From a virus (lineage: Duplodnaviria > Heunggongvirae > Uroviricota > Caudoviricetes), in the IMG/VR virus record IMGVR_UViG_3300009515_000001: DNA of 64,000 nucleotides, one strand, 5' to 3'. Below are positions 2,835-58,917 of the stretch, piece after piece; the stretch's first letter is position 1, and each line of letters opens with the position of its first letter. The notes beneath the pieces are model-generated. The model was not told where the DNA came from, made no database searches, and saw only the letters and a program-made list of their open reading frames with translations. Made by a program: the position numbers and the translations under genes.

Positions 2835-3606
2835 TGAGCTGGACTTGGGAGAAATCTCTAGTCCAAAGGTTTCATTACAAAAACAGGCACAAAACGAAGG
2901 TAAAAACGGTAAAAAAACTAGGTTTAAAAAGAAAAATGGATGTAGATCACTACATCATAGCTGTCATTCACCACATTTAGAAACTGAATTCTGCAAGAAT
3001 TGTGATGCTTATGTTGAATTAATCAATAAAAATCAATGTGATTGCTGTGGAAAAGAGGTGATGAAGTTCCTAAAACATACTTGGTTGAGTAGAGTTTTGA
3101 AATTTGGAATAAGACAGCATAGAAATTTCATAAATGATTGGGTTATGTTCCCTGATCAAGGTATAGAATACAAGAAATTGGACAAGCCATACGCATATTA
3201 TCAAGAAATTATTGATCCAAAAACGCAAAAACCTGTAATAGATTCAAAGACAGGTAAGATAAAAAAAAGAAAGATTGTAGTTGAAGAAGTATATACCAAA
3301 CCACCAAAGCGAAGTCAGATGCTAGAGATCAAATACAGGGATACCGTTTACGAGATTGAAGTAAAATATCTTGCATTGGCATTAGAAACCATTGATGCAA
3401 GTGACGATAAAGCAGGGATACGTGGTGGTGAAGAAGCAAAATTAGAGATAATCAAGAAGCATATTGGTATTAAAGGACTTAGAATATGGATTCCTGATGG
3501 TGAAATAATGGATACCAAGTGCAACAGATGTCAATCATTTCTTAGATATGATAAAAAAGATAACTTTTTCTGCCCTAAATGTGGTAGAATTGATTCTTTT
3601 AAATAA
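2818..3606 (+). CDS. zinc-ribbon protein (two CxxC...CxxC clusters)
   Basis: CKNCDAYVELINKNQCDCCGKE and CNRCQSFLRYDKKDNFFCPKCGRI motifs. Confidence 0.55.
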   Translation: MVATISELDLGEISSPKVSLQKQAQNEGKNGKKTRFKKKNGCRSLHHSCHSPHLETEFCKNCDAYVELINKNQCDCCGKEVMKFLKHTWLSRVLKFGIRQHRNFINDWVMFPDQGIEYKKLDKPYAYYQEIIDPKTQKPVIDSKTGKIKKRKIVVEEVYTKPPKRSQMLEIKYRDTVYEIEVKYLALALETIDASDDKAGIRGGEEAKLEIIKKHIGIKGLRIWIPDGEIMDTKCNRCQSFLRYDKKDNFFCPKCGRIDSFK

Positions 3607-3607
3607 G
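3594..3607 (+). promoter_or_regulatory. TTCTTTTAAATAAG promoter box (archaeal TATA/BRE-like) about 20 nt upstream of ATG 3627; overlaps stop of preceding ORF
   Basis: Exact copy of a motif recurring at least 9 times upstream of start codons in this window. Confidence 0.5.
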
Positions 3608-3626
3608 TAAAGAAGAAAATAAAATT

Positions 3627-3869
3627 ATGTCATTGAATCCTAGCGATCAGCCTAAAAGAAAAAGCAGTGACTTTGATTTTACTAAACAGTTTGATATTTT
3701 CATTAAAGAAGGAAATGTTTTTGGAGTTAGAAAAGAACCCAAAAAAATAAGCACTTTTGTTCCACCAAGCCCTGATGTTGGACTTGATAGATCATTTAAT
3801 GCAGAACAATTATCAATTAAAAACAAAACTAGAAGTGCAAAATTAACAAAGAGGTTCTTTGACTTTTGA
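3627..3869 (+). CDS. small basic protein, FDF motifs, ends RFFDF
   Basis: ORF preceded by promoter box. Member of the basic F-ended protein family. Confidence 0.45.
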   Translation: MSLNPSDQPKRKSSDFDFTKQFDIFIKEGNVFGVRKEPKKISTFVPPSPDVGLDRSFNAEQLSIKNKTRSAKLTKRFFDF

Positions 3870-3938
3870 CTTTTACATCAACAAAAATTTCTTTGGGTAA
3901 AGGAAAAGGAAAGTTTATTCATGTAGATCCAAAGGAGT

Positions 3939-6900
3939 TTGAAAATGGTTCGTAGAATAGCAAAGTCATCAAGATTTTCAAGATCTGTTCCATCAATAAA
4001 ACCAGTTAGAGTTGCACCAGATGTAAAAACAACAAAAAAACCAACAAGAAAAACTACACCTAAAAAAGCAACAGCGCCACCACCAAAACCATCGCCAGTA
4101 ATTTCTTTACCAACAGCACCTGCACAACCTTCAAGAGTTTCAAAGGCAAGTAGGGTTTCTGGGGCTAGAGTTATCATTCCCAGTAGAACTGTAACACCTA
4201 CACCACGACCATCACCAGTGGTTCAAAGACCAACACCAACACCAACAACTACAAAAAAACCATCACCATCAGAACCAAAAGTAGTAGTTCAGCAACCAAC
4301 TACTGTGGTGAAAACATCAATTTCACAAGATGAAAAGGGAAATATTGCAAGCTCACAATCACAAGTTGTTGAAACACCTGCGGCTGTTCAGGAAGTAAAA
4401 CAACAACCATCAGGTGTTCCATTAATACCTGGTGTTCCTGGATTAATAGGTGGTATTCCATTGGCTGCAGGTGCTATACCATTTCAAGAAACAACATCAA
4501 AAAGTCAGGCAGAAGAATCATTATTTGGATTTAAAAAACCTGAAGGTGGCGCGGCTGAATCAAGGGCAGAAGCTTTAGATTTATCAGAAAAAGTTTTGAG
4601 TGAAGAAAGAATTAAAGTTCCCACCGAAGAAGTTGTAGAAGTAATTCCAGGTGGTGAACCAACACAAGAAACTAGAACATTCATTGATCCAAATACAGGA
4701 TTATTAACAACTGAAACAGTGACTACAACACCTGGAGATATTGAAGTAACCACACAGAAAGGTGGGGAGATTGTAAAACAGCAAATTGGACAATCAGAAG
4801 TAAAACCAGACTTTTCAGATCCGCTTGGAAGTTTGGTAAGTGGCGCAAGTCAATCAGCATTAAACGAAGTGATTGGAATTAAAAATTTACCAGCAGCTGT
4901 ATCAGGTGGTGAACAAGAAGAATTATTTGCAACTCCATCAGCAATATTAGGCGAAGGATTATTTTCAGCAGTTGGTAGAGTTGGCGGACAAATATTTGAT
5001 CTAGGGCGACAGGCCGCTGGAAAACCAGAAGCAAAACCTGGTGAACAGGTTACAACATTTGGAATAGCTGGAGATAAAGTTACATTTACACAACAGGAAA
5101 GAGGACCAGATGCTTTCCAAATTCTTGAAGAATCTGGACAAAGAGCAACTAGAATAGCAGTTGCAGATCCATTATTTGCTGTTGGTGACATCGCAGTACA
5201 AGTTCCATTGTTAGTAGTTGCACCAGTTAAAGCGGCTTCAGTTGCAATCAAAGGTGTTGGAGCGGCTGGCAAAGCAATCAAAGGCGTTACAAAAGCTGGG
5301 AAAACACAAAGGTTACTTTCAATAACAGGAGAAAAAGTAACATCACCAAAGCCAAAAACACCACTTTCAAAAACATTTGAACAGGAATTCTTACAAGCTG
5401 AACAAATAAAGAAAGCACAAGCCCCACAAAAAGGACAGATTGAACAATTTGGTTCATTATCAAAGGCAGAACAAGATAAGTTATTACAGTCACAAAGATC
5501 CCAGTTTGAAGAAGCATTAAGTAAAGCACAGCAAAGACAAAAAGTAAAAAGAGATCTTGGACCATCAGAACCAACAGCAGAATTTGCACAAAGACAAAGA
5601 GATGCAAGTGAGTTTGCAAGAATTCCACAAGAAAGAATCAGCCCATCACAAATTGATCCAAATTTACAAAAAGCAATTAAAGAGTTAGAAGGTGGTGGTG
5701 ATCCAGATCTTTTCAAAGTAAGAGAAACAGGAAGATTCACATCAACTCCAATAGAACTTGGAAGAGGAACAGGAATCAGGCTAGGTGATGATCTTGGGGA
5801 TGTTGGAAGAGGTGGTGGTGCAAGACCACCAAAGCCACCAAGTGGCGGTGAACCAAGAGTTTTGGGTGGAGAAGGATCACCGTTTGGTGAATCAGGATTG
5901 CCACTAAGACCAAGTAGTTTTCCAGGTGCTGCAGAAAGAGTTTCAGAAATTGGAAAAGCACAAGGAAGAACAGGATTTACAGGAACATCATTAGATTTAG
6001 GTAGAGCAACAGGAAGGGCTTCTGAAGAAGTAAGTGCAGGACTTGAGGGATTTACATCGGAAATAATAGGATTAGGAACAGGAGTGGCTAAAAAGTCAGC
6101 TAAAGTTACAAAATCACAAATCGATAATTTATCAAAATCAGCAAAAATACCAAAAGACAGGGCAGAAAAAATATTACGAGATGCAGCTGACAAAGGTTCT
6201 GATTCAGCAGAATTTAGAACGGTTACATCACCAGAAGGGTTAAACCTAATTCAAAAACAGGCTACTAAACAAACATCGGCATTAAAACAACTTGAAGAAG
6301 CTAGAAAAGCATTACAAAAGACAAAGAGTACGCAAAAAACAGTTTCAAGTGTAGCAGATCAAAAAACACAAAAAAGGTTATCAGATTTAATTAAAAAGGA
6401 AAAACAAAAGGCAAAAACAGCAGGAAAATCAGTTAGTGCTGAAAAGGCAACACAAAACGCTTTACGAAAATTAATTGCCGCAGAAAAAGCAAAAACAGGA
6501 ACAAAGGCAATATCTTCAACAGAAGATATTCTATTCCAAAAACCTAGAAAACTAAAGGGTGTAACAGATGATGTAAGTGAAATTCAGATACGAAGGCCTG
6601 GTCAAGTTGGAATTCTAGGCGGTATAGCAACTGGTGTAGCGATAGGATCAGCAGTAGGAATTGGTTTAAATCAAGACCAAATCACACAACCAAAAATACT
6701 TGAAAACCCAAATTTATTCAATAAGCAAATTTCAAGACTGGTTAAAGATCCAACAATACAAATAGAAAAAACAGTTCAAAAACCAAAGGTAACAACCGTA
6801 CAGCAACCAATTTCAGATACAATATTTACACAACGACAAGATCAAAGATTTGCAATTTCAACATTATTCCCACAGGAAAAAATAACAAAACAACAGCAAC

Positions 6901-7211: not shown

Positions 7212-7267
7212 TTTAATTTTATTAATACCACTATGCTTATAACATCTAACTAACATGAAAAAAGTTA

Positions 7268-7450
7268 ATGGGTAAGTATTTTTGTAAAAAATGTTATGGA
7301 TTAACATTTTCATTAAGATACATGACCAATGGTAGATGGTTAAAACCAAAAGGCAACCCACAATATTGTAAAACATGTAATCTGATCGAACCACAAAAAA
7401 CATGTATCAGTGGATTAAATAAAATTAAAAAATTAAGGGAGGTGAATTAA
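7268..7450 (+). CDS. small zinc-ribbon protein
   Basis: CKKCYG...CKTC motifs. Confidence 0.4.
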   Translation: MGKYFCKKCYGLTFSLRYMTNGRWLKPKGNPQYCKTCNLIEPQKTCISGLNKIKKLREVN

Positions 7451-9491: not shown

Positions 9492-9497
9492 TTTAGT

Positions 9498-10711: not shown

Positions 10712-10725
10712 TTCTTTTAAATAAG
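10712..10725 (+). promoter_or_regulatory. TTCTTTTAAATAAG promoter box upstream of ATG 10748
   Basis: Exact motif copy 23 nt before the start codon. Confidence 0.5.
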
Positions 10726-10747: not shown

Positions 10748-11728
10748 ATGTCATTCTTTGGTGGAAGTCCTAGATTAGCTGATGTTGGAGATTTTTTACC
10801 AAAAAGAAAAAAGAAAAATGGTAAAAATGGAAGAAATGGCAGATCTGGTTTAGCAAATGGTCGAGGTGCCAAAGAAGCGGCTATGGGTTTTGAATCACCA
10901 GGATTTTTCAGTGGGCTTAGACAAAACGGAAATGGATCAAGAGGAATACCAAAGGCTGATCCAGTTGGTTTTGATAGAGGTTTAGAAATACCTGAATTAG
11001 GAAGTGGATTTAATTCAAGAATTGGAAACATTGGTTCAGGATTTGTAGAATCAGTAAATCCATTTAGAATTGGTTTTAGTGATGTATTAACAGGTAACGG
11101 TAGAACAGGCGAAATTATCAAAGGTAGTGGTGGATTTGTTACGCCATCTATTGGTAAAAGAAAGAGAGGCAGACCAAAGGGAAGTGGTAAAAAACAAAAA
11201 GTAGTTCAGAAAGGATTAGGAAAATCAAAGACATTAGAATTTGATACCAAAGGAGCAAAAAAATTACGAGCAGAAGCAATTCAATTAGCGAGAGAAGGAA
11301 AAACTGATGAAGCACGAGCTAAGCTTTCACAAATTCAAACTAAGAGTGTAGGTGGATTACTTAAGGAAGATATTAAATCTAAAGGTGGTAGATTAAAACA
11401 AAGTTTGGGTTTTACAGGCGATGATCAAAGAGAAGAAATTTCACTTGATGAAATTCAAGAAACAATTAGAGCAGATAGAGAACCAGGTGGACTTGGAACA
11501 AGACTAGAAGAAATAGAATTAGAAAGAGAAGTTGACGAAGAAAGTAGAGAAAGATTACAGGAAGCATTAGCAACTGAAAGAGCTAGTGAAGGTGCATTGG
11601 AAGAAGCAGTAGTTGAAGAAGTAGATGAAGAAGAAGAAAACGGATTAGATGAAGATTTGGATGAAATAGAAAAAGATGACTTTTCATTTGAAGTTGATGA
11701 ACAAGGACAAATACAAAGGAGGCGATAG
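10748..11728 (+). CDS. Gly/Lys/Arg-rich basic protein with acidic E/D tail (326 aa); candidate virion-associated protein
   Basis: ORF after promoter box; compositional bias. Confidence 0.55.
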   Translation: MSFFGGSPRLADVGDFLPKRKKKNGKNGRNGRSGLANGRGAKEAAMGFESPGFFSGLRQNGNGSRGIPKADPVGFDRGLEIPELGSGFNSRIGNIGSGFVESVNPFRIGFSDVLTGNGRTGEIIKGSGGFVTPSIGKRKRGRPKGSGKKQKVVQKGLGKSKTLEFDTKGAKKLRAEAIQLAREGKTDEARAKLSQIQTKSVGGLLKEDIKSKGGRLKQSLGFTGDDQREEISLDEIQETIRADREPGGLGTRLEEIELEREVDEESRERLQEALATERASEGALEEAVVEEVDEEEENGLDEDLDEIEKDDFSFEVDEQGQIQRRR

Positions 11729-12842: not shown

Positions 12843-12857
12843 TTCCTTTTAAATAAG
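12843..12857 (+). promoter_or_regulatory. TTCCTTTTAAATAAG promoter-box variant; GGAGGTG SD follows before ATG 12877
   Basis: One-mismatch copy of the recurring box. Confidence 0.45.
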
Positions 12858-12876
12858 TGTAAAGGGAGGTGTAATT

Positions 12877-19164: not shown

Positions 19165-19527
19165 TTGGAAGATGATACTGTCGAATACGAAGAAGTAGTT
19201 GATTTCAAAAAGATAGGACTGATAGCAACAATCTTAATTTTAGGTTCAATTATAATTGCTGTGTATGTTTTAGGTATGGATTTTCCAACCATTGAGATTC
19301 CAGAAATTAATTCAAATGAACAGATTGAACCAGAAACAGAAACAATACAAGCAGATCCAAGAATTAGAGATGAGTATAAAAAATACATTGATTTCGGTTT
19401 AAGTGAAGATGACATTCTAAACATACAGGAGTTGCCATGTGAGGCATTTGAAACAAAAGAAAACTTTTCACAAGATCCTAAATACGGAATGATATTCCAG
19501 CAAAGAGAATCCGAGTGTTCAGTATAA
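19165..19527 (+). CDS. TM-anchored acidic protein
   Basis: ORF track; one TM helix. Confidence 0.45.
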   Translation: MEDDTVEYEEVVDFKKIGLIATILILGSIIIAVYVLGMDFPTIEIPEINSNEQIEPETETIQADPRIRDEYKKYIDFGLSEDDILNIQELPCEAFETKENFSQDPKYGMIFQQRESECSV

Positions 19528-19560
19528 TCTTTTTAATAAGAGTTTTATCTAAAATAAATA

Positions 19561-19845
19561 TTGGTCATACACAAAAACGATTCATTCAATCCAAAGCGTA
19601 GGCAAGTAAATTCAAGGCTAAGAAGGCTGAAACTACTAAATAGAAAAAAGACAAACAAGCTTAGAAAAATAGAAAGAAAGCAAAGAAAGACATTCAATAA
19701 AACACTAAGAAAAAGAGTACCAGGAGAAAGATCCATTATTAACGGAAACAACTCATTAGATCGGGGAGCAACCATGCTATCAAAAAGAGTTGAGAAACAA
19801 ACCAAAAATATAGAACTAAAAATGAGTAAAATTAAATTTCTTTAG
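19561..19845 (+). CDS. K/R-rich basic protein
   Basis: TTG start about 25 nt after the TCTTTTTAATAAG box variant at 19525. Confidence 0.4.
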   Translation: MVIHKNDSFNPKRRQVNSRLRRLKLLNRKKTNKLRKIERKQRKTFNKTLRKRVPGERSIINGNNSLDRGATMLSKRVEKQTKNIELKMSKIKFL

Positions 19846-25919: not shown

Positions 25920-26120
25920 TTGAGTGAATACTGTCCTATTTGTAATGAAAGACTTGCAAACTCGGATCATGTTATAAGGTGGATTCACGATATTATCAAA
26001 CATAGAAACTATTGGAAAGGTCAGACAGACGTTATGACAAAGAATCAGTTAAACGAAGTTCTATTTGAGATCATTGACTATTTTCATAAAAGAGAAAAGG
26101 ATGGAGTTGGAAGGATTTGA
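25920..26120 (+). CDS. small C2H2-like zinc-finger protein; 3' end overlaps tRNA on opposite strand
   Basis: CPICNERLANSDHVIRWIHDIIKH. Confidence 0.4.
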   Translation: MSEYCPICNERLANSDHVIRWIHDIIKHRNYWKGQTDVMTKNQLNEVLFEIIDYFHKREKDGVGRI

Positions 26121-26176
26121 ACCTTCGACCTCTAGCTCCCAAAGCTAGCTGGCTATCCAGACTACCGCACAACTCC
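26102..26176 (-). tRNA. tRNA-Pro (anticodon UGG)
   Basis: Minus-strand GGAGTTG acceptor stem pairs with CAACTCC. Anticodon stem CTAGC/GCTAG with loop TTTGGGA. T-arm GAAGG-TTCAAAT-CCTTC; D-loop AGTCTGGATA. D-stem has a C10-A25 mismatch and CCA is not encoded. Confidence 0.8.
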
Positions 26177-26784
26177 GATAGTCATTTGATGTGTAGGGAG
26201 GGCGTGCAGCGTTTTAACGCCACTTGGCAATTGAGAGTTCCCCACACACCAATAAAAGTAATCACATCATAATGTAATAACATCTATGGACTTGATAGTC
26301 TAGAACAGACTGTAAACTGTGCGGATAAACCGTACGGTTTGTTAAAGGATCGTTTAATTGGTATTTTCAGTAATCAGTTCGATCAGAAAGCTGAAACTTC
26401 AGTATTCAGTTTTAACGAATTACCATTAATCGGAAAGGCCGCAACACGCCTGGAGAAACACCAGCCCCTGGGGATTTAACCCATGCGTGGACCAGTTTCA
26501 GCAATTTCAAAATCCAACTACTGAAAATTTCAGTAGCGATCATGGATCTTGGAAAAGGAATATGAAGTTAAATGCAATTATCAATTCAGGAAACTGTTTT
26601 TATATTGCTTATAACATATTATAACTGATTCCTGGTGACAGTACCATTATTTTCACTTTGGGATCATTCAACAGGTGGCTGGCATTGGATGAGATTTCAT
26701 TCTTGCCCCACCAATAACTTTTTACGATTTAACAATGTAGTATAGTTGCTTCTGAATCAAGCGATGTCGAAGCGTACATTCGTT

Positions 26785-26826
26785 CAAGCAGGGGTGGATT
26801 TTGTTACCCCTTGCTTGAATTTTTTT
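26785..26826 (+). terminator. hairpin (about 11 bp, one bulge) followed by T7 tract; terminator-like on + strand
   Basis: CAAGCAGGGGT-loop-ACCCCTTGCTTG then AATTTTTTT. Confidence 0.4.
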
Positions 26827-26916
26827 GTCTAGTTGTTCTTATTACGATTGGAGATGTAGTATATTCACTCCGTTTGATTTGGTCGTCAATCGAGTATTGG
26901 GTGACAACCTAGTTGA

Positions 26917-29807: not shown

Positions 29808-29821
29808 TTCTTTTAAATAAC
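29808..29821 (+). promoter_or_regulatory. TTCTTTTAAATAAC promoter box; implies true start ATG 29845 for the next gene
   Basis: One-mismatch copy of the recurring box. Confidence 0.45.
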
Positions 29822-29826: not shown

Positions 29827-30906
29827 TTGTTAAAAAAAATTCGTATGGTACTGTCACTGGCGTTTATTATCGCTTTCATAGGTGCAGCAGTTGCTCTTTT
29901 AATAGGAATTTTAATATTTTCAGAAGTTTCAGACAGTCTGGTATGCCCAGCTCCCGCTGGTGGTGGGGGAACTGTTGATATTACAGGCTATGATAATCTT
30001 GGATCGATAGGTTCATCAGCGGATGCGAATTATTTTGATGATGGTGATCCATTTAATTTTACTTCTGTGACAGGTATAATTAATGAAGGTGCGTTCCAAA
30101 ACGGTACAGCAACAGGTGGTAATGAAGCTGTAATAGTATTTGCACCATCACTTGCAGTAACATCAGACTTTGACTTTTTACATCAAGGCACAACTGGTAA
30201 CAACATTACAAGCATAAATTTCTGGATGAAGGGAGATGTAGATGGAGCACCTGCATATCCAGTTTTAAACACTGGTTCTAGTGATTCTGGTGGCACAGGA
30301 TTATCAGTTTGGACACAATCTGGAACAACTACATACTTTACAATTTATGAAGGCGGTGGAACTTCACTTGTAGATCAAAGCTCAATAGCCCAAATTCCAG
30401 ATGATGCAAGTTGGCACATGATAACTTATGTTTATGATAAAGGTAATATGACTAGTAATTTCGGATTTATGTGCTTAGACGCTTCTTGTACTAACACTGG
30501 CACAATAATTGGAACTCCATTTTCTGCTGAAACAAATTCAGCAGCTAACCCATTAACATTAGGTGGTGGAACTGGTTATGCTTCTGGACCAGTCGAAAAT
30601 GAGTTTGATGTCGATGAAATTATAATTTGGCAAGGTTATCAATTAACACAGTCAGATATTGATAATATGTATAATTCTGGATCAGGTGCAACAGGAATAG
30701 GAATCGCAAGTGGTTCACAAGTTTTAGCAGTTACATTTGATGAAGGTTCACAACAAGTAGTTGTAAGTGGCGGTAGTGGTGGTCAAGGTTCAGACGAATG
30801 TGAACAAGCCAAAGATACTGCATGGACTGTTATAGGCATATTGCCTGTTGCTTTATTCTTTGCCCTCTTTGCAATATTTGGTAGCTTAGGTGGCAGACAA
30901 AGTTAA
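29827..30906 (+). CDS. membrane-anchored protein with concanavalin/LamG-like (Laminin_G_3-like) beta-sandwich domain
   Basis: N- and C-terminal TM helices; SWHMITYVYDKGNMTSNFGFMCLDASC resembles the Laminin_G_3 core; Gly/Thr/Ser-rich. Confidence 0.5.
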   Translation: MLKKIRMVLSLAFIIAFIGAAVALLIGILIFSEVSDSLVCPAPAGGGGTVDITGYDNLGSIGSSADANYFDDGDPFNFTSVTGIINEGAFQNGTATGGNEAVIVFAPSLAVTSDFDFLHQGTTGNNITSINFWMKGDVDGAPAYPVLNTGSSDSGGTGLSVWTQSGTTTYFTIYEGGGTSLVDQSSIAQIPDDASWHMITYVYDKGNMTSNFGFMCLDASCTNTGTIIGTPFSAETNSAANPLTLGGGTGYASGPVENEFDVDEIIIWQGYQLTQSDIDNMYNSGSGATGIGIASGSQVLAVTFDEGSQQVVVSGGSGGQGSDECEQAKDTAWTVIGILPVALFFALFAIFGSLGGRQS

Positions 30907-31712: not shown

Positions 31713-31804
31713 AAAATGAGATAAATACCATACTATATTAGTTATTAAGGCTTTAGGCTACAAGAATATTTTTAAATATGTTATAATGAAGATGTTATAA
31801 TGTT

Positions 31805-32992
31805 ATGTATAATGATGGGGTAATTGAAGAAGGGGGTTATGAAGAACGATCTGTTGTTTCCACTCCAGTAGGTTTAGTTGTACTGTTTTTAGGCGGTCTG
31901 ATCATTTTTACATTAATCACACTAGTATTAAAAAACCCAGTATGGACATGGTTCGACAACTTGATGATCCACGAAATTTTTGTAGATACAACAACTATGG
32001 ATCTAACAGACGAACAGGTAGAGGGGATTACCAATATGGCATTTGATTGGAATTGGATCTGGCAGGGATTTTTAATTTTAGTAGTAGTTATTATCATAGC
32101 AAAAGGCATTAGGATCATTAGACCAACTCATAGGGCGGCTGTTGAAACACTTGGGAAATATACTGGTTTTAAAAAATCAGGAATTACATACGTTCTGCCT
32201 TTCATTCAAAAGCTTTACGATGTAAATATCACAGATCAGTTGGTAGATGTTCAACGCCAAGAGGTAATCACAAAGGATAATCTTAACTGTAAAGTGGATG
32301 CACAGGTGTATTACAAGGTAGGAGAAACCGAATCTGAACTAAAAAAGGCATTATACAAGGTAAACAGCTATGAAAGACAGATTGTTCAGCTAGCTAGAAC
32401 CACTCTAAGAAACGTAATCGGTGATAATTTATTCAAAGATGTAAACTCTCAAAGGGGAAAACTTAACGTAGAAGTCTTTGAAACTATGGAAAAGGAAACA
32501 AGAGATTGGGGAATTAATCTGGTTCGTGTTGAATTAAAGGAAATTGAACCACCAGCAGACGTACAACAAACAATGAACATGGTTATCAAAGCAGAAAATG
32601 AAAAACAGTCAGCAATTGACTTTGCAAATGCAACAGAAACAAAGGCAGACGGTCAAAGAAGAGCAGAAATTAAGCTAGCAGAAGGAGAAAAACAATCACA
32701 AATACTAAAAGCACAAGGAGAAGCACAAGCTATAATTGCAGTTGCAGAAGCAAAAGCAAAACAAATTGAGTTGGTAAATAGTGCTGCAGATAAATATTTC
32801 AAAGGAAACGCACAGACTTTGGAGAAATTACAGGTTACAAGGGATTCACTTCAAATTAATACCAAGTATATTATGACAAAAGAAGGAATTACACCTACAT
32901 TGGTTGTTAATGAATCAGGTGAAAGTATAATTCCAATTAAAAAAGAAAGCCAAAAAAGTCAAATACATGAAGCTTATGAGGATATTCAGTAA
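31805..32992 (+). CDS. SPFH/band-7 (stomatin/prohibitin-like) membrane protein
   Basis: N-terminal TM, SPFH core (IRIIRPTHRAAVETLGKY...QVYYKV...), A/E/K coiled-coil tail. Confidence 0.75.
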   Translation: MYNDGVIEEGGYEERSVVSTPVGLVVLFLGGLIIFTLITLVLKNPVWTWFDNLMIHEIFVDTTTMDLTDEQVEGITNMAFDWNWIWQGFLILVVVIIIAKGIRIIRPTHRAAVETLGKYTGFKKSGITYVLPFIQKLYDVNITDQLVDVQRQEVITKDNLNCKVDAQVYYKVGETESELKKALYKVNSYERQIVQLARTTLRNVIGDNLFKDVNSQRGKLNVEVFETMEKETRDWGINLVRVELKEIEPPADVQQTMNMVIKAENEKQSAIDFANATETKADGQRRAEIKLAEGEKQSQILKAQGEAQAIIAVAEAKAKQIELVNSAADKYFKGNAQTLEKLQVTRDSLQINTKYIMTKEGITPTLVVNESGESIIPIKKESQKSQIHEAYEDIQ

Positions 32993-45527: not shown

Positions 45528-45557
45528 TTTAAATAGAATGATTATAACATAAATTTA

Positions 45558-46262: not shown

Positions 46263-46409
46263 TGGTATAACAAGCAGATTGAATTCTAGAGTAGTAGATC
46301 TGTGGCACTTGCTTCTTGTGGAGTTGAAGCCAACGACTAGGGTGGATCGGTAACTGTTCGGTGAAGCCCTTCAACATCTTTTTAAATTAGAAGATTATAA
46401 CAAACTTGA

Positions 46410-47111
46410 TTGAAAACAATTCCCAACGATCACAAATCTGAAGCTGGTAAGTGGTATGATTTCGATGGACAGATTAAAGTCGAGGAAGTTGAAAAGGATT
46501 TTGACCAGTATGATCACAACGAAAAACAACCAGTTTATAGAATCTCACTAAAAATCCCATCAAAATATGCAGTTGGAATTCATAAAAAAGAATGTGTAAT
46601 TAGCGGCGTAGAAAGGAATTGGGCTACATATTACTATCAAGGTTTGAGTGATCCAATACCAAAAGCCATGATGAACATGTCCTCAAAAATTCGGGATTTA
46701 AATCGTCAGCTAAATGAACTAAAACAAAGAAACCACGCACTAGAATTACACTTTACAAGAACAAGATTTGAAGAAGATTTAGAGTATTCCCGAAGGAAAA
46801 AAGAAAAAGAGGAATGTCAATATTGTTACAAAGAGATTGAAAAAACAAAACAGATTGAAGGAAGAGATTGGTTCTACCTAAACGAAGATGGAATCATGCA
46901 CATTAATTGCGGTGTAAAATGCTTTGATTCAATCTGTACTGAATGTAACGCAGTCTTTGAAGCAGATTATTGTGAAGAAGATGGTTGTCCAAACTGTGAC
47001 GGAAGAATGAGATCTGCAAAGAAAAAAGAGATTAAGGAACATCTTGTGTATAACGCAATCAAACGTTACCTTCCAAATGAGCTACAAAACAAAGTAGTAA
47101 TGAAAGAATAG
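46410..47111 (+). CDS. Cys-rich multi-zinc-finger protein
   Basis: CQYCYKE...CGVKC...CTECN...CPNCDG. Confidence 0.5.
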   Translation: MKTIPNDHKSEAGKWYDFDGQIKVEEVEKDFDQYDHNEKQPVYRISLKIPSKYAVGIHKKECVISGVERNWATYYYQGLSDPIPKAMMNMSSKIRDLNRQLNELKQRNHALELHFTRTRFEEDLEYSRRKKEKEECQYCYKEIEKTKQIEGRDWFYLNEDGIMHINCGVKCFDSICTECNAVFEADYCEEDGCPNCDGRMRSAKKKEIKEHLVYNAIKRYLPNELQNKVVMKE

Positions 47112-47154: not shown

Positions 47155-48912
47155 ATGATAATTGGGCATGACTTTGATAATAAAGCGATAAATATCGATG
47201 TTCAGCGTGTTGTGGAAGGAAGGTTGCTTTTCCAAGCCAACAGTGGCGGTGGTAAAAGCTACGCATTAAGAAAGTTTTGTGAGGTCACTCATGGTAAGGT
47301 TCAGCAGATCATTTTAGATGTAGAAGGTGAGTTTGCTTCACTTAGGGAGAAATTTGACTATATTTTAGTTGGAAAAGAAGGTGACATACCAGTTAACCTA
47401 AGAGCTTCAGAACTTTTGGCAAAAAGATTGTTAGAACTTAATACTTCAGCAATTATAGATCTTTATGAGCTAAAACACCATGAAAGGAAAAGATTTGTTA
47501 GAAATTTCCTAGATTCATTAATTAATTCACCAAAAGAGCTTTGGCACCCTTGTTTAGTTATAATTGATGAATGTCACATCTTTGCACCTGAAAAGACAAG
47601 TGGAGAATCAGAATCTCTTGATTCTGTAAAAGATTTAGCTACAAGGGGAAGAAAACGAGGATTTGCATTGGTAGCTGCAACACAAAGGCTTTCAAAGTTG
47701 AACAAAGACGTAGTTGCAGAACTAAATACAAAACTAATCGGTAGAAGCTCTCTTGATGTGGATATGAAACGTGCGGCATTTGAGCTTGGTTTTACCGATA
47801 AAAAAGATGTTTTGTCACTTAGAAATATGAACAAGGGAGAATTTTATGCTTTTGGACCTGCATTAACCAATGAAGTAACAAAAATAATGGTTGATAATGT
47901 TTTGACAACACACCCTGAAGCTGGTAAAACATACCAGAAAACCAAATCAGCGCCTGCTGAAAAAGTAAAAAGAGTGCTTGAAAAACTCAAAGATCTACCT
48001 GTTGAAGCAGAAGAAGAACTAAAGACACATGAAGATCTAAAGAGAAAAATTATCGAGTTAAAACGTGAAATTACAACTCTAAAACGAGCAAAACCCACTC
48101 AAAAAATAGATGAAAATCTGTTAAAAGAGCATTATGAAAGAGGCTATAAAGATGCTACAAAGCAAAGAAATGATAAATTACCAAGTATGATTAGGAGTAT
48201 TAACAGTGAATTAAAGGCAATCAACACTTTAAAACGACAAACTGAAATAACTTTAAAGAAATCTAACGAGAATCTTAGCTACATTCTTGGTTCAATGGAA
48301 TCATTAAAGCAAGTTTCAACACCTAAACAAAGAAAAATTAATTTAAAACCAGCACCATTAGGTTATGTAGGTAGTGTAGTTGCAACACAAGTTGGAATTC
48401 CACTTATTAAACAAACACCAGAACTAGAATCAGAATCAGAAATTGGAGCAGGACCAATAAAGATACTAAACGCAATAGCACAGTTTGATCCAAATCCAAT
48501 CTCTATTTATCAAACAGGAACTTTTGCTGGATATTCAGTTGGTTCAGGAACATGGACTAACTATATTTCAATACTAAAAAAGAATTATTTGATTAACAAA
48601 ACAGGTAAAATGCTAAGTTTAACTGAACAGGGAAGGGAAATGACAAAAGATATTGAACCACTTCCAACAGATCCAGATTCATTACTTCACATTTGGAAGA
48701 ATAAACTTCCAGCTGGACCAGCCAAGATCTTACAAGTTTTGTTTGATAATTATCCAGATTCAATAGAAAGGACTGAACTTGCAGATAGATCGGGATATTC
48801 TTTTGGTTCAGGAACATGGACAAATTACATATCCATTCTTAGAAAGAATCACCTAATAGAAGATGATTCGGGAAATTATAAGGTATCAAAAACTTTGTTT
48901 CCACTTCAATAA
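47155..48912 (+). CDS. HerA/FtsK-superfamily (DUF87-like) P-loop ATPase with two C-terminal repeated winged-helix-like modules
   Basis: IGHD...RLLFQANSGGGKSY (Walker A), VIIDECH (Walker B), ATQRLSKL. Repeats GYSVGSGTWTNYISILKKNYLI and GYSFGSGTWTNYISILRKNHLI. Confidence 0.7.
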   Translation: MIIGHDFDNKAINIDVQRVVEGRLLFQANSGGGKSYALRKFCEVTHGKVQQIILDVEGEFASLREKFDYILVGKEGDIPVNLRASELLAKRLLELNTSAIIDLYELKHHERKRFVRNFLDSLINSPKELWHPCLVIIDECHIFAPEKTSGESESLDSVKDLATRGRKRGFALVAATQRLSKLNKDVVAELNTKLIGRSSLDVDMKRAAFELGFTDKKDVLSLRNMNKGEFYAFGPALTNEVTKIMVDNVLTTHPEAGKTYQKTKSAPAEKVKRVLEKLKDLPVEAEEELKTHEDLKRKIIELKREITTLKRAKPTQKIDENLLKEHYERGYKDATKQRNDKLPSMIRSINSELKAINTLKRQTEITLKKSNENLSYILGSMESLKQVSTPKQRKINLKPAPLGYVGSVVATQVGIPLIKQTPELESESEIGAGPIKILNAIAQFDPNPISIYQTGTFAGYSVGSGTWTNYISILKKNYLINKTGKMLSLTEQGREMTKDIEPLPTDPDSLLHIWKNKLPAGPAKILQVLFDNYPDSIERTELADRSGYSFGSGTWTNYISILRKNHLIEDDSGNYKVSKTLFPLQ

Positions 48913-48946
48913 AATTAAAAACAAGTAATACAAAGAATCTAACAGT

Positions 48947-51076
48947 TTGAGGCTGGAAAATCGTACAATTTTGATCGGAGATGTGATGGAAAAGATTAAA
49001 GAGATTCCAGACAGTACAGTTGATTGCGTTATAAGTAGCCCACCTTACTGGGCACTGCGAGATTACGGAACAGGAAAGTGGGTTGGTGGTAACAACCCTA
49101 ACTGTCAGCATGAAGCTATACGTCACAAAACAAGAGATGAAAGAAAATCAAATGCTTGGATGGAAGAAAAATTAACTGAAGGAACATACGGTGATGAATT
49201 CAAGTGGAAAGCAAGAAGATGCCCTGATTGTAACGCTGAATATACGGACTTGCAGTGGGGTTTAGAACCTGATTTCAAAGATTATTTAAAAAAATTAGAT
49301 GATTTAATGGAACAATTACGCAGGGTTCTAAAGGATACAGGTTCAATCTGGATTAATTTAGGTGACACTTACTCTTCTTCTGGTAGTGGAACAAACTCAA
49401 AAACCACTGGATTGCATGGAAAAGATTGCAAATGCCAGACATGTGTAGCAACTCATGGAACTTCTTATTATAGAAAGGGCTTAAACTATATTCAAACCAA
49501 AAGCAGGATAGGAATTCCTGAAAGATTTTACATAAATTGTATTGATAAGGGATTCATAGCACGTAATCATATTCCCTGGATTAAACCAAACGCCATGCCA
49601 AGTTCAGTTCAAGATCGTTTTACAAACAAATGGGAATCAGTTTTCTTCTTTGCAAAGAAGCAAAAGTATTACTTTAACCTAGACGCTGTTCGGGAAAAGA
49701 CTATCACTGAATTAAAGCCACCAAAAGAAAAAACAAAAACAAAACTGAAACCATTATTTGATAATACTGAAAACGAACCAGATCGAAAGATGTTAGATGT
49801 TCCTGGTCAACCAACTCATTCAATTCACAAGAGAAGAGAACAAGGATTATCAGATTATGAAGAAAAGGGAAATCATCAACCAGAAGGAAGATCACATTTT
49901 GGAACAGGATCAGACATCAAACAAAACATGTTAAAGGCAAGATTCAAACAAAGAGAACTAAACAAGGCACAAGATCAATACACACAAAGAATCCTAGAAG
50001 CTAGGGCAGAAGGAGCTGGACATGACAATCCACTTGGAAATCCAATGGGTAAGAATCCTGGCGATGTGTTTGTAGAACAAAATGATGATTCAAGATGGCG
50101 TAAACACTTTGATGAAAATGGAAATTGTTACGGTTGTGGGAAACATTATACAAAACATACAGTAAAAAATAGAGCACAGGGATCTGAAAATAGGGATCAA
50201 AGACAACAAGATGGGTACTGCTGGTGTAACCCTCAAGGAAAAAATCCTGGAGATGTAATCTACGACAAATCAAAACCTTATTCAGTTGTCGAAAGATTTG
50301 GAGAAGTAATTTACAGAAAACTTCCAGCTCACGATGCTTTGAGAGAATATCTAAACGAATCACGAAACAAAGAGGGAATTACAATAGATTACATTGAAGA
50401 GTATTTTGGCAACCAAGCAGGACATCATTGGTTTGAAAAAAACGGATCTTACCCAAGTGTTTCAGACTGGCTAAAACTGAAAAAACTGCTAAAATTAGAC
50501 AATACTTATGATGACCAATTACTAACAGAATACACAAAGCCAGCAGAAAAGCAGAATGATCCAAGAGGAAAGAATCCTGGTGACGTATTCATAATAAACA
50601 CAAAACCCTTCACATCAGCCCATTTTGCAACTTTCAACCTTGATCTTCCACTAAAAATACTGAAATGTTCATGCCCACAAAATGTATGCAAGAAATGTGG
50701 AAAGCCAAGAGAAGCAATATGGAAGAGGGCTTCCTTGCAGGATACAACAGATGAGTGTGAGTTAAAGATTGAAAAATCTCAATACAAACTTGGAAAATCA
50801 TCAGCATTACGATTGAGTGGCGGTGGAGATACGTATAACGCATGGAAAGCTGAAAACCCTGACGAGTTAGTTGGTTACACTGATTGTGGTTGTCATCAAG
50901 GGTATGAACCAGGTGTTGTACTAGATCCTTTCTTCGGTTCTGGAACTGTTGGAGTTGCTGCAGAAAAATTAGGATTAAACTGGATAGGCATTGAAATCAA
51001 TCCGCAATATGTTTCAGAAATTATAACAAAAAGACTTGATAAACACAAAAACGAAAGGATGACTGAATTCTTTTGA
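48947..51076 (+). CDS. beta-class (SPPY) N4C/N6A DNA methyltransferase, unusually long (709 aa), with triplicated GKNPGDV motif and a Cys-cluster insertion
   Basis: ILIGDVMEKIKEIPDSTVDCVISSPPYWALRDY (motif IV); HFATFNLDLP (HPAxFP-like); VLDPFFGSGTVG (motif I); three copies of G-K-N-P-G-D-V. Confidence 0.8.
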   Translation: MRLENRTILIGDVMEKIKEIPDSTVDCVISSPPYWALRDYGTGKWVGGNNPNCQHEAIRHKTRDERKSNAWMEEKLTEGTYGDEFKWKARRCPDCNAEYTDLQWGLEPDFKDYLKKLDDLMEQLRRVLKDTGSIWINLGDTYSSSGSGTNSKTTGLHGKDCKCQTCVATHGTSYYRKGLNYIQTKSRIGIPERFYINCIDKGFIARNHIPWIKPNAMPSSVQDRFTNKWESVFFFAKKQKYYFNLDAVREKTITELKPPKEKTKTKLKPLFDNTENEPDRKMLDVPGQPTHSIHKRREQGLSDYEEKGNHQPEGRSHFGTGSDIKQNMLKARFKQRELNKAQDQYTQRILEARAEGAGHDNPLGNPMGKNPGDVFVEQNDDSRWRKHFDENGNCYGCGKHYTKHTVKNRAQGSENRDQRQQDGYCWCNPQGKNPGDVIYDKSKPYSVVERFGEVIYRKLPAHDALREYLNESRNKEGITIDYIEEYFGNQAGHHWFEKNGSYPSVSDWLKLKKLLKLDNTYDDQLLTEYTKPAEKQNDPRGKNPGDVFIINTKPFTSAHFATFNLDLPLKILKCSCPQNVCKKCGKPREAIWKRASLQDTTDECELKIEKSQYKLGKSSALRLSGGGDTYNAWKAENPDELVGYTDCGCHQGYEPGVVLDPFFGSGTVGVAAEKLGLNWIGIEINPQYVSEIITKRLDKHKNERMTEFF

Positions 51077-52149: not shown

Positions 52150-52893
52150 ATGGAGTGTAAACTAATGTCAAAAACTGAAAAAGCTGTGCTAAGAAAAGTA
52201 ATTGAAGCTTACACAAGAGATGTGGGAAGGGGAGTTTGCAGGTTAGATTATGACACTATGGACATGCTAGATATTGCAACAGGTGATCCGTTAAAACTAA
52301 AAAACAAGGATACGGTCACTGGTGCAAAGGCATTACCACTTTATCCATCAGACGAAGGAAAGGATATTGTAAGAATTGATGGTTTGTTAAGACAGAATCT
52401 TCATGTTCAAGTAGGACTTCCAATAGAAATTACAAAGACAGAAGCTTCACCAGCCCAAGAATTAACACTATTCCCACTTCGAGAGATCCCACCATTAGAA
52501 GAAAAATACATAGCTGATGCTTTGGAAAGTGTTCCTGTAACCAAAAATGATATTGTCAACGTTCCTTATTTCGGGGGAAGATTAGAGTTTAAAGTTAAAA
52601 AAACAATACCAAACGGTATAGTGGTTATTACACAAGTGACTAAAGTAAACCTAATCATTGAAGATCTTCCTGACGAGTTGGATGATTATGAAAAATATAT
52701 TACAAGAGAGAGAAATAAATTATTACGTGATGTTAAAAAACAGATCAAAGATTCATTAGTAAAGAAAGATTTTGCAAGGATACAAGAACTTTCATCATTT
52801 TATGAAAAAAAGATTGATGATTTAGAATCAACATGGAGGATTGCAAGACACATCTTACAGAAAAAAGAAGATAGTGATAATAATGTGTCCTAA
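52150..52893 (+). CDS. stand-alone CDC48/VCP N-terminal-domain-like protein (double-psi barrel) without AAA modules
   Basis: VIEAYTRDVGRGVCRLDYDTMDMLDIATGDPLKL...GKDIVRIDGLLRQNLHVQVGLPIEI matches the CDC48_N pattern. Confidence 0.55.
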   Translation: MECKLMSKTEKAVLRKVIEAYTRDVGRGVCRLDYDTMDMLDIATGDPLKLKNKDTVTGAKALPLYPSDEGKDIVRIDGLLRQNLHVQVGLPIEITKTEASPAQELTLFPLREIPPLEEKYIADALESVPVTKNDIVNVPYFGGRLEFKVKKTIPNGIVVITQVTKVNLIIEDLPDELDDYEKYITRERNKLLRDVKKQIKDSLVKKDFARIQELSSFYEKKIDDLESTWRIARHILQKKEDSDNNVS

Positions 52894-56435: not shown

Positions 56436-56594
56436 GTGGTGGACAAATTGCATGGTTTGTATTTATGTCCAAACTGTAATGCAAAAATGCAAAAAATTAG
56501 CGTAACAAATTATCGATGTCATGTTTGTAGATTGGAATGGAAACTTACTGAATGGGTGGATAAAAAATGAATAAAAAAAGGGGTTAGATTTCTA

Positions 56595-57426: not shown

Positions 57427-57448
57427 ATATAAGTGATAAACAAAATAT

Positions 57449-57462
57449 TTCTTTTAAATAAG
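57449..57462 (+). promoter_or_regulatory. TTCTTTTAAATAAG promoter box with no ORF downstream; precedes hairpin-rich 57487-57563 segment
   Basis: Exact motif copy. Confidence 0.45.
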
Positions 57463-57556
57463 CAAATAACGTAACATTTTGTAATTGGTTTTAGGGGAGA
57501 ACCAACATGTGATCTTCAAAAAAGATCCGACACATGGGTGTTAATCACCCATTTTT

Positions 57557-57570
57557 ATCTTTTAAATAAC
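57557..57570 (+). promoter_or_regulatory. ATCTTTTAAATAAC promoter-box variant upstream of 57575/57590 start
   Basis: Motif variant. Confidence 0.4.
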
Positions 57571-57574
57571 TGGT

Positions 57575-57790
57575 ATGTCTAGTAAAAACATGAGTGGGGT
57601 AATAGATCCAAAGGTAAGAAAAACAGTTACAACTGGTGCCAAAAACCTGAAATTAACTCCGCCTGGAAGTACTGGTAGTAATTTAGGTTCTGTTCCAATG
57701 TCAGATGGACCATCAAACAAGGCAACAAAAAGACTTGAGAAACGTTCCCAAGCACAAGAAAAAGCACTTAGAAGAGGATTAGGATTCTAA
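57575..57790 (+). CDS. small basic protein, ends RRGLGF (start may be ATG 57590)
   Basis: ORF track. Confidence 0.45.
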   Translation: MSSKNMSGVIDPKVRKTVTTGAKNLKLTPPGSTGSNLGSVPMSDGPSNKATKRLEKRSQAQEKALRRGLGF

Positions 57791-58228: not shown

Positions 58229-58242
58229 TTCTTTTAAATAAG
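58229..58242 (+). promoter_or_regulatory. TTCTTTTAAATAAG promoter box 20 nt upstream of ATG 58262
   Basis: Exact motif copy. Confidence 0.5.
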
Positions 58243-58261
58243 TGTTAACCCAATTTTCAAT

Positions 58262-58375
58262 ATGCCAGGTCTAACTAAAAAGGGCATGATGATGGTAAAG
58301 AAAGCTCGTGATATGAGAAAAGATGCCATGATGATGCGTAAGAAAGGTATGATGATGAAAAAGAAACGTGGATAA
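58262..58375 (+). CDS. 37-aa Met/Lys-rich peptide with three KGMMM/DAMMM repeats
   Basis: MPGLTKKGMMMVKKARDMRKDAMMMRKKGMMMKKKRG; promoter box upstream. Confidence 0.3.
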   Translation: MPGLTKKGMMMVKKARDMRKDAMMMRKKGMMMKKKRG

Positions 58376-58390
58376 TTCCACTTCATTTTT

Positions 58391-58404
58391 TTCTTTTAAA
58401 TAAG
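58391..58404 (+). promoter_or_regulatory. TTCTTTTAAATAAG promoter box upstream of ATG 58426
   Basis: Exact motif copy. Confidence 0.5.
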
Positions 58405-58425
58405 TAAGAATCAAATTAATTTTTA

Positions 58426-58521
58426 ATGATATGTTCAGAACATGATAGACTTTTCGATCACACAGATGATTGTCCTGATTGTGAAGCTGAAAGATTAACA
58501 ACACTAGCAAGAAGTTGATTC
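58426..58521 (+). CDS. 31-aa zinc-binding peptide (C-x3-H ... C-x2-C)
   Basis: MICSEHDRLFDHTDDCPDCEAERLTTLARS. Confidence 0.3.
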
Positions 58522-58784
58522 AAGATATTGTGTGTGAACACAAATCAAATCTGAATTGCCCCTGCTGTGCCAAGAAATTCTGCTATACATGTATCTATAA
58601 GCATATCAAAATTCACTCTCAAAGGCTAGAGAGTATTGGAGTTGAGTTGAAACATGTTTCAAAACCCCCCACTCATTCTGCTAAGATCTCACCTAAAACA
58701 ATCAAAGCCCCCAAAATTCCTTCATTGAATATTTCAAATCCTGTACTAAACAGTTCACCTAAACCCAAAAACACTTTTCTTTAA
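58515..58784 (+). CDS. zinc-finger plus Ser/Pro-rich protein
   Basis: CEHKSNLNCPCC...CYTC. Confidence 0.45.
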   Translation: MIQDIVCEHKSNLNCPCCAKKFCYTCIYKHIKIHSQRLESIGVELKHVSKPPTHSAKISPKTIKAPKIPSLNISNPVLNSSPKPKNTFL

Positions 58785-58917
58785 AATAAGTCAACAACAA
58801 ACTATCTTTGGGCTGGATTGGAAAAAGTAGCCAATGTCCTATCTCGATGTACGTGTACTGTCATCTTCTAGTATATCCAATCCCCAATCCAGTTCCTTTA
58901 TAATTATTATCAATATA

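Follow-up and report, generated by a model that had tools for sequence, protein, structure and literature searches.

What is the short sequence that recurs along the 64,000-nucleotide (nt) stretch of the IMG/VR virus record IMGVR_UViG_3300009515_000001, and what does it do there? The first-pass annotation of this stretch (the window) had taken the 14-mer TTCTTTTAAATAAG for the dominant promoter element of the virus, an archaeal TATA box with an upstream transcription factor B recognition element (BRE). Our analysis indicates that the 14-mer is a real conserved promoter box in an uncultured virus, and that the probable host is an ammonia-oxidising archaeon. The box very likely acts as an archaeal core promoter dependent on TATA-binding protein (TBP) and transcription factor B (TFB), from which transcription would start about 20-21 nt past the last box base and yield leaderless mRNAs and two small RNAs.

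Allowing at most one mismatch, TTCTTTTAAATAAG occurs eight times in the window, every time on the plus strand, against a chance level of 0.35 ± 0.54; none of 100 dinucleotide shuffles gave eight copies. Five copies are exact (3594, box A; 10712, box B; 57449, P1; 58229, P3; 58391, P4) and three carry one mismatch (12844, box C; 29808; 58777, P5). A ninth strong copy, P2 at 57557 (ATCTTTTAAATAAC), differs at two positions, looser relatives lie at 19527, 31767 and 46377, and a further conserved variant was found at 1913. All nine copies listed in the first-pass annotation are thus real and more frequent than expected for an AT-rich 14-mer. Its limit of one mismatch holds for eight of them but not for 57557, and its coordinates were right to within 1 to 2 nt, with 12843 corrected to 12844, 58775 to 58777 and the loose copies displaced by 1 to 2 nt. 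A search at three mismatches found 47 sites where 41 were expected; enrichment is lost at that level, so only the tight box class is real.

The nine strong sites were turned into a position weight matrix, which sets them clearly apart from all other sites of the window. The strong sites scored 23 to 30 bits and the 1913 variant 16.3 bits. The best match outside the strong set was TTCTTTTGAGTAAG on the minus strand near 39.4 kb, at 21.4 bits, and all others scored 16.3 bits or less. Box copies are restricted to 0-31 kb and 57-59 kb of the window. A full-text literature search for the motif found no paper describing it.

The position of the box relative to genes is just as constrained. The spacer between box and start codon measures 19, 22, 19, 23, 19, 19 and 21 nt at the seven strong coding sites and 19-24 nt at the loose ones. 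Only 3.3% of plus-strand positions are followed 19-23 nt on by the ATG of an open reading frame (ORF) of at least 30 amino acids (aa), and such an ATG follows seven of the nine strong sites (binomial P = 1.4e-9). That the copies sit upstream of starts at a constrained distance was correctly seen from the outset, but the range of 13-30 nt then given was far too wide. The suggestion that some copies precede ORF-free hairpin segments also stands, as the boxes at 57449 and 58777 are followed by ORF-free structured stretches.

The box also marks the borders of transcription units, as had been proposed. The copy at 3594 encodes the terminal SFK and stop codon of ORF 2818-3606, the one at 58777 does the same for the terminal TFL of ORF 58515-58784, and the 1913 variant provides the stop codon of ORF 1059-1925. 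Its power to single out true starts is clearest at 29845, where the ATG is preferred over the TTG at 29827. The upstream TTG is kept in none of four relatives, all of which have the box, 21-23 nt and then (A/T)TGGTACTGTCACT; the database gene model after this box is the 353-aa ATG form. Similarly, ATG 57590 is favoured over the in-frame ATG 57575, which is not kept in the related contigs L204, L126 and L143.

Relatives of the window were found as syntenic metagenomic contigs of 43-111 kb, and 274 kb of these were used for comparison. At one mismatch or fewer, this family set contains 44 distinct copies of the box, every one on the gene strand, and 33 of the 44 have an ATG 19-23 nt downstream. 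Eight copies have no start codon; these comprise P1-type RNAs, three leadered copies at site B and one unexplained case. Sites A, B and C recur at orthologous positions, before the 80-aa, 326-aa AT-hook and 84-aa genes, in six relatives with protein identities of 41-65%. At these sites the bases of the box do not change, in contrast to the non-coding bases around it. Beyond the 14-mer, conservation fades within about 3 nt on the upstream side and about 2 nt on the downstream side, the A-rich spacer excepted.

The family box matrix, built on 46 sites, separates the core of the box from its flanks. C3, A12, A13 and S14 are the same in all 46 sites, while A/T positions of the core vary; swaps such as TTTTTTATA, TTTAAAATA and TTTTAATTA are tolerated, and the flanking C and S are never altered. 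Tolerance of A/T swaps in the core is the behaviour expected of a TATA box. Site B adds information on what lies downstream. In close relatives the box is followed after 21-22 nt by ATGTCATTC as the start codon. Three distant relatives also have a tgtATG at +20 to +25, yet this ATG is out of frame; translation begins 19 nt beyond it, after an AAGGAG Shine-Dalgarno (SD) site. The motif is kept there even though it is not the translation start, so the conserved thing is a DNA position about 20-23 nt after the box, as would be expected of a transcription start.

How would such a box work? Its TATA core, TTTAAATA, spans box positions 5-12 and fits the archaeal consensus TTTAWATA. In archaeal core promoters the centre of TATA lies about 26-27 nt ahead of the transcription start, with a purine-rich, orientation-setting BRE directly upstream of TATA, and a distance of 22-23 nt after TATA is canonical for the start. 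Positions +20/21 after the box lie 22-23 nt after the TATA octamer, and start codons are found at +20 to +24. At +19 the base is T in 33 of the 46 sites, with purines next, and this T followed by a purine at +19/+20 appears initiator-like. The core, the restriction to one strand (44 copies against 0), the orthologous conservation and a host-like distance from TATA to ATG all favour the proposed archaeal TATA promoter. The predicted mRNAs would be leaderless or nearly so, as had been suggested, with starts 0-3 nt from the presumed transcription start, and nine of ten box-driven starts have no SD site, 12877 being the exception.

We therefore propose the following sequence of events, in which the binding proteins, the exact start and the level or timing of expression are the parts that we infer. 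Host TBP presumably binds TTTAAATA and, together with TFB, would recruit the host RNA polymerase. Transcription would begin about 20-21 nt past the last box base, at the purine after the T, so that the first nucleotide would be the A of the start codon or lie 1-3 nt before it in most units, and an SD site would not be needed. In two units the same promoter would make non-coding RNAs that are short and structured. The flanking bases that never vary (T2, C3, A12, A13 and S14) are absent from host-like promoters and are not explained by TBP alone; they most likely tune promoter strength or specificity for the virus family.

Host promoters were profiled in 1.2 Mb of Nitrososphaeria loci. For ORFs of 100 aa or more, TTTWWWWA octamers peak sharply there at 21-23 nt ahead of the ATG (11, 18, 17, 24, 11, 11 and 9 octamers at distances of 20 to 26 nt, and 1-8 at other distances). 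In the virus, the distance from octamer to ATG is 21-25 nt. The ATG-anchored base profile of the host loci is T-rich from -31 to -27 and A-rich from -26 to -22. Anchoring on TTTWWWWA worked better than expectation-maximisation with one occurrence per sequence, which returned a blurred consensus for the host upstream regions. Agreement with host geometry is an observation, as are enrichment, strand bias, fixed spacing and orthologous conservation.

The same comparison did not bear out the upstream BRE of the first-pass annotation in its canonical form. In host-like promoters, positions -8 to -6 are rich in A and G occupies -5 in 42% of cases against a background of 15%, and the sequence AAAGAAA-CTTATT is found upstream of host tRNA-Leu genes, about 22 nt from the mature 5' end. 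The six viral nucleotides before TATA read T-T-T-T-C-T with an invariant C, and the position of the supposed upstream BRE is thus occupied by an invariant, pyrimidine-rich TTC, unlike the purine-rich host-like promoters. Nor is the exact 14-mer a host consensus. With at most one mismatch it occurs once in the 1.2 Mb, and not before a gene, against eight times in the 64-kb window, where its density is about 150-fold higher. Similar TTTWAAWTAA cores do precede some host genes. The virus box and the host TATA share one architecture; core and geometry are host-like, and the complete box is virus-specific. Literature searches for a thaumarchaeal or Asgard promoter consensus gave only indirect matches. 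In agreement with the geometry seen here, nirK and amo genes of marine ammonia oxidisers have been described with TATA and partial BRE elements at 23-25 nt upstream (PMC4010524).

Several points weigh against a host-type core promoter as the full explanation. The start at +20/21 is deduced from sequence proxies. A TTC in place of a purine-rich BRE leaves orientation and contact with TFB unexplained, and the near-absence of the full 14-mer from the sampled host-lineage DNA amounts to more conservation than a generic TBP/TFB site needs. The spacer after 12844 has a strong SD site upstream of the predicted start, where it would be useful only to read-through transcripts. For the host promoter profile, orthologous loci surrounding one gene were used and not whole genomes, and the host assignment rests mainly on one host-like gene together with composition and geometry.

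In one refinement, compatible with the core promoter reading, the TATA promoter also needs, or is gated by, a virus-encoded specificity factor. Such a factor, be it activator, repressor or TFB-like, would read the TTC...AAS flanks, and the box would mark a temporal class (early or late) and not just the strongest constitutive promoters. We regard this as possible but the lesser option. It would account for flanks that never change around a core that does, for the roughly 150-fold density relative to host-lineage loci in a box that lacks a canonical BRE, for the use of a TTATAACATCT box class and of generic TATA boxes by other genes, and for the confinement of the copies to 0-31 kb and 57-59 kb. 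There is also precedent in viruses of Sulfolobales, where near-identical cores are combined with virus-specific flanks and viral regulators (PMC11065993). Yet no candidate factor was found: no TBP or TFIIB family is among the best 25 of 31 Pfam families matched by 116 window ORFs, nor among the precomputed domains of the relatives. Conservation that extends only about 3 nt past the 14-mer is short for a separate operator, and selection for a maximally strong core promoter could fix the flanks as well. That the invariant flanks, TTC in place of the BRE and AAS downstream, are read by a viral transcription factor or by a virus-adapted initiation factor is a tentative idea, and we consider it somewhat less likely still.

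Readings in which the box is not an archaeal promoter at all fare much worse. Transcription termination at oligo-T tracts is established in archaea, and the T-rich 5' half of the box (TTCTTTT, in many copies with further T upstream) could in principle stop upstream transcripts as a terminator or insulator, its place before genes being a by-product; hairpins with T-runs abut two copies (57534-57556 and 58368-58390), and three copies overlap upstream stop codons. A terminator requires neither the invariant AAATAAG half nor the 19-23 nt spacing to starts nor an RNA stem whose 5' arm is conserved at +20, however, and the T-run is broken by the invariant C. The box has no hairpin of its own, the terminator-like hairpins being separate upstream elements. 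Termination as its main function is therefore improbable, and a dual role, to terminate and then restart, is possible but secondary. A bacterial phage promoter, with TAAATA as a -10-like element or with a phage RNA polymerase starting at the box end and the spacer serving as a short leader, is more improbable again. The 12844 spacer does carry a perfect SD site (GGGAGGTG) at the right distance from its ATG, and G+C content and SD sites alone do not separate Firmicutes-like hosts from archaea. But SD sites are missing from nine of ten box spacers, sigma-70-like sites number 7 in 57-60 kb against 11 expected with none at the boxes, and there is no conserved -35 element, nothing being conserved 17 nt upstream of the box. 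Conservation of the P5 RNA begins at +20 and not at the box end. Searches with the large proteins gave no phage hallmark or PHROG match, the Band-7-like protein aside, and the archaeal-type gene content, the Nitrososphaeria nearest cellular homologues and the TATA-ATG geometry of the host lineage all point elsewhere. We give equally little credence to a non-transcriptional repeat, be it a binding site for packaging, replication or recombination or the remnant of a mobile element. Five copies do lie within 1.4 kb beside an ORF-free, repeat-bearing, AT-rich region at 58.9-59.6 kb, but absolute strand bias, a fixed distance to starts at dispersed loci and orthologous placement are properties of promoters, and copies that share only 14-17 nt are not copies of a mobile element.

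The archaeal core promoter thus remains our preferred reading of the box, which does not, however, serve every gene. The claim that it is the dominant promoter element is overstated. The nine strong and about four loose copies are only part of some 22-25 TATA-like candidates counted 19-27 nt before plausible starts in the window, and a second box exists. No strong copy lies between 31.8 and 57.4 kb, a segment with many small zinc-finger genes, methyltransferases and a HerA-like ATPase. The second recurrent box, (C/T)TTATAACATCT, occurs eight times on the plus and three times on the minus strand of the window (22 and 10 times in the family), typically 20-24 nt before starts. In the form (C/T)TTATAACAT(C)T it is found at 7237, 26934 and 36524 and also at 45542, 46395 and 47138, with inverted copies at 31779-31800. 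At three sites it lies 20-23 nt before the start codon, like an alternative TATA; at three others it lies between another TATA and the start, in an operator-like position, and the two inverted copies fall within the spacer of the 31805 promoter. It is kept before the 60-aa gene at 7268, where CCTTATAACATCT is conserved in six relatives. All relatives also carry the element TTTTATATA ahead of gene 2475, some 24 nt from the conserved start TTGAGTGATCC.

The SD examples of the first-pass annotation are genuine, with GGAGGTG 5 nt before the ATGs at 7450, 12877 and 33695, GAGGTGA before 13344 and GGGGGTGA before 14321. Across the window an SD-like 5-mer precedes about 32 of 119 ORFs, compared with 3 of 119 at control positions. 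The suggested split between box-driven starts and operon-internal SD starts is nevertheless a tendency and not a rule, given this modest share and the SD site at 12865, itself one of the examples cited for the split (as 12866), inside the spacer of box C. This site lies upstream of the presumed transcription start, so it could serve only read-through transcripts from box B.

The individual copies, all on the plus strand, lie before the following genes. Box A (3594-3607) lies 19 nt before the ATG at 3627 of an 80-aa basic protein, and in six relatives the site reads (T/C)TCTTTTAAATAAG, then 19-20 nt, then ATGTCA. Box B (10712-10725), invariant in six relatives, lies 22 nt before ATG 10748. The gene behind it (10748-11728, plus strand) encodes a family-conserved protein of 326 aa, of low complexity and rich in G, K and R, with an AT-hook-like motif (GRPKG) and an acidic tail at the C-terminus. 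This protein may be DNA-condensing or virion-internal; a capsid gene was considered and rejected in view of its low-complexity, G/K/R-rich composition and AT-hook. Box C (12844-12857), which begins TCC, lies 19 nt before ATG 12877, with the GGGAGGTG site in its spacer and an 84-aa product that has a hydrophobic N-terminus and a basic C-terminus; orthologous copies read GTC or CTC...AAG, or TTCTTTTTTATAAG in L007 and L008. The copy at 29808-29821, which ends in AAC, lies 23 nt before the ATG at 29845 of a 353-aa membrane-anchored protein rich in G, S and T, and is kept in L211-L214.

Among the weaker plus-strand sites, the variant TTCTTTTTTATAAC at 1913-1926 has an ambiguous downstream start (GTG at +5, TTG at +23) and reads TTCTTT(T/A)(T/A)TATAAC in six relatives. 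The loose variant ATCTTTTTAATAAG (19527-19540) lies 20 nt before the TTG at 19561 of a 94-aa basic protein, and TATTTTTAAATATG (31767-31780) 24 nt before the ATG at 31805 of a Band-7/HflK-like protein of 395 aa, with two TGTTATAA copies in the spacer. TCTTTTTAAATTAG (46377-46390) is followed after 19 nt by the TTG at 46410 of a 233-aa protein, with TTATAACA in the spacer. As far as their predicted sequences go, the box-driven products (basic or disordered, hydrophobic-plus-basic, membrane-anchored and G/S/T-rich, or tiny peptides) are compatible with abundant virion or nucleoid-associated proteins. As a separate observation, two relatives carry the box together with the first 15 nt or so of the gene (ATGGTACTGTCACT, MVLSL...) before several paralogous genes (L213 at 7350 and 10177; L214 at 5094 and 9966), and promoter and signal or anchor sequence appear to have been duplicated together.

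The densest group of copies, at 57.4-58.8 kb, recurs as a whole and in the same order in L204, L126 and L143. There P1 is followed by an ORF-free RNA, P2 by a protein of 66-76 aa, then come a small basic ORF, P4 with a Cys/His peptide of 27-30 aa, and P5 with a second ORF-free RNA. These three contigs were the true relatives with the cluster among the hits when metagenomes were scanned for pairs of boxes separated by about 100 nt; most other hits were unrelated AT-rich or tandem-repeat contigs, and L159 is also related. Two unrelated metagenome contigs, L166 (2384-3059) and L170 (1502-1990), contain arrays of 95-nt tandem repeats, each repeat with TCTTTTAAATAA; these contigs have 38-47% G+C and no protein in common with the window.

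In the window, all on the plus strand, P1 occupies 57449-57462, upstream of an ORF-free small RNA, and is kept in L204, L126 and L143. P2 (57557-57570, with ATC...AAC) lies 19 nt before the ATG at 57590 of a 66-aa protein, and the three relatives have the box, 19-20 nt and an ATG. P3 (58229-58242) lies 19 nt before ATG 58262, the start of a 37-aa peptide rich in Met, Lys and Arg (MPGLTKKGMMMVKK..., 58262-58375, plus strand); a small ORF is found at the same place in L204 and L143. P4 (58391-58404), with a hairpin (58368-58381) and a T-run upstream, lies 21 nt before ATG 58426 and a 30-aa Cys/His peptide (MICSEHDRLFDHTDDCPDC..., 58426-58518, plus strand). The start of the peptide is conserved, with the box, 20-21 nt and ATG(T/A)T(T/C)TG in the three relatives. 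P5 (58777-58790, TTCTTTAAAATAAG) is followed by an ORF-free RNA, and its position holds the variants TTCTTTAAAATAAC, TTCTTTTAATTAAC and TTCTTTTTAATAAC in L204, L126 and L143.

Both ORF-free units are predicted to be structured. The P1 transcript, of about 70 nt, would span 57483-57556 on the plus strand, between P1 and P2, and fold into three hairpins (minimum free energy -20.8 kcal/mol, z = -1.9). The last hairpin (57534-57552) and its T-run resemble a terminator, and this hairpin is kept with differing stems (GGGTG/CACCC, GGGTC/GACCC and GGGCC/GGCCC). The RNA was found in the three relatives, the unit in L204 being about 165 nt longer. The RNA after P5 (58810-58900, plus strand) has conserved ATCTCG and GTACGTG blocks and a terminal stem whose 5' arm begins exactly 20 nt after the box. 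The stem consists of 12 pairs, two of which show compensatory changes among four sequences: it reads CTGGATTGG / CCAATCCAG in the window and L204 and ATTGGATAGG / CCTATCCAAT in L143, and one pair differs on one side in L126. A comparison with Rfam gave no family for either RNA.

Beyond the cluster, 58917-58973 contains three tandem 19-nt repeats (ACTAGTGCTACTACTAGTA), followed by an ORF-free stretch of about 650 nt (58975-59640) that is partly very AT-rich, with inverted A/T runs, and along which the cumulative GC skew flattens. The region at 58.9-59.6 kb may be an origin, a terminus or an attachment region. Further downstream on the plus strand are a STAND/AAA-like NTPase (59959-61263, 58% identical in L143) and an AAA_5 (MoxR/McrB-like) ATPase (61800-63026), both of which could act in replication initiation or defence.

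What kind of virus is this, and in which host would such a promoter operate? All plausible genes lie on the plus strand, and the G+C content is 34%. The only minus-strand feature found is a tRNA-Pro(UGG) gene at 26102-26176, beside which about 700 nt (26180-26900) contain short spurious ORFs only and several GC-rich hairpin-like segments. A PHROG scan of ten large proteins gave one match, the Band-7-like protein, to a hit described as a lipoprotein. Pfam searches found methyltransferases, a HerA/FtsK-like ATPase with a winged helix, AAA/STAND ATPases, DUF5131, Band-7, zinc fingers and a stand-alone CDC48 N-domain, and NCBIfam matches were of archaeal flavour (CDC48_N/CDC48_2, HerA, Sso10a-family and Csl4-like). 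Nothing useful emerged among GenBank phages from blastn of 47155-51076 or from tblastn of two large proteins. Searches with the alignment of the 326-aa protein turned up no relative among GTDB genomes or in IMG/VR, those with the 169-aa protein none in JGI metagenomes, and a scan of IMG/VR for the box plus ATG returned single chance matches and no relatives. The window is a member of an undescribed family of virus-like elements of about 75-110 kb. Judged by names alone, most samples of the relatives are marine sediments.

The host is very probably an archaeon. The viral tRNA-Pro has G1:C72 and A73, the archaeal pattern, the bacterial one being C1:G72; the sampled Nitrososphaeria loci contained no tRNA-Pro for comparison. 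Within the archaea, Nitrososphaeria are the probable host lineage, a more guarded assignment that draws on a protein of 52150-52890 (plus strand). This protein consists of the N-terminal double domain of CDC48, standing alone without the ATPase domains, and is conserved in related contigs. Its cellular homologues are 50-60% identical over the N-domain, and all those with an organism name are Nitrososphaeria/Thaumarchaeota. In a genome scan the best 80 of 583 matches were Nitrososphaeria or unresolved archaeal metagenome-assembled genomes, a result more biased than that from the named homologues because the scan patterns were drawn from a Nitrososphaeria-rich alignment. The G+C content of the window is similar to that of Nitrosopumilus and Nitrosopelagicus loci. 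An Asgard (Lokiarchaeia) host had been suspected from deep-sea sediment sample names and was dropped, as the CDC48-N homologues are uniformly Nitrososphaeria. The CDC48 N-domain protein might serve as a decoy or adaptor for the host unfoldase.

The box provides a handle, from sequence alone, on a genome in which almost no protein can be named. It fixes unit boundaries and true starts (ATG 29845, ATG 57590), exposes genes of 30-37 aa that ORF callers miss, and revealed two conserved non-coding RNAs. If the Nitrososphaeria host holds, the family would represent large, previously unrecognised viruses of globally important nitrifiers, and their promoter code could help in the search for relatives and in the interpretation of metatranscriptomes. 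Should a viral factor read the flanks, the family would run a promoter code of its own, partly independent of the BRE/TFB logic of the host and with two box classes or more, TTCTTTTAAATAAS and TTATAACATCT among them.

Of the systems to which the box can be compared, T7-like phage promoters resemble it as a long, near-invariant, strand-specific sequence before the transcription units of one virus family. They differ in that they include the start site and need a phage single-subunit polymerase; conservation of the box stops about 20 nt before the presumed start, and no polymerase gene was seen in the window. Closer parallels are offered by the core promoters of cellular archaea (Sulfolobales, Thermococcales and Haloferax), with an 8-bp TATA matching TTTAWATA, a predicted start 22-23 nt after it and an initiator-like T-purine signal. 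Translation starts likewise lie within about 3 nt of the presumed transcription start without an SD site, and operon-internal genes use SD sites or overlapping stop and start codons. The box departs from them in having T-T-T-T-C-T and not a canonical BRE upstream and in flanks more invariant than those of cellular promoter sets. The nirK and amo promoters of ammonia oxidisers and the Nitrososphaeria loci profiled here share the TATA-ATG distance (host peak at 21-23 nt, virus at 21-25 nt), and host-like promoters differ in their flanks.

Among viruses, the nearest counterpart is found in Sulfolobales. The early-gene promoters of SIRV2 and other rudiviruses and the T6 promoter family of SSV combine a purine-rich BRE with 30-75 bp of conserved regulatory sequence and the regulator Aca8, and identical copies of their cores also occur at highly expressed host genes (PMC11065993). 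In the family described here about 17 nt are conserved, the purine-rich BRE is absent and the sampled host-like DNA has no exact copy; no extended 30-75 bp conserved sequence of the SIRV2/Aca8 type was found around the box, and no regulator was identified. Several box-driven genes are conserved and structural-looking, and host lineage and virus group are unrelated to those of the Sulfolobales viruses. Both share a near-identical TATA core (TTTAWATA there, TTTAAATA here) placed before unrelated, often small genes, which makes it usable for annotation. The mechanism itself is ordinary, archaeal viruses being already known to reuse near-identical TATA promoters.

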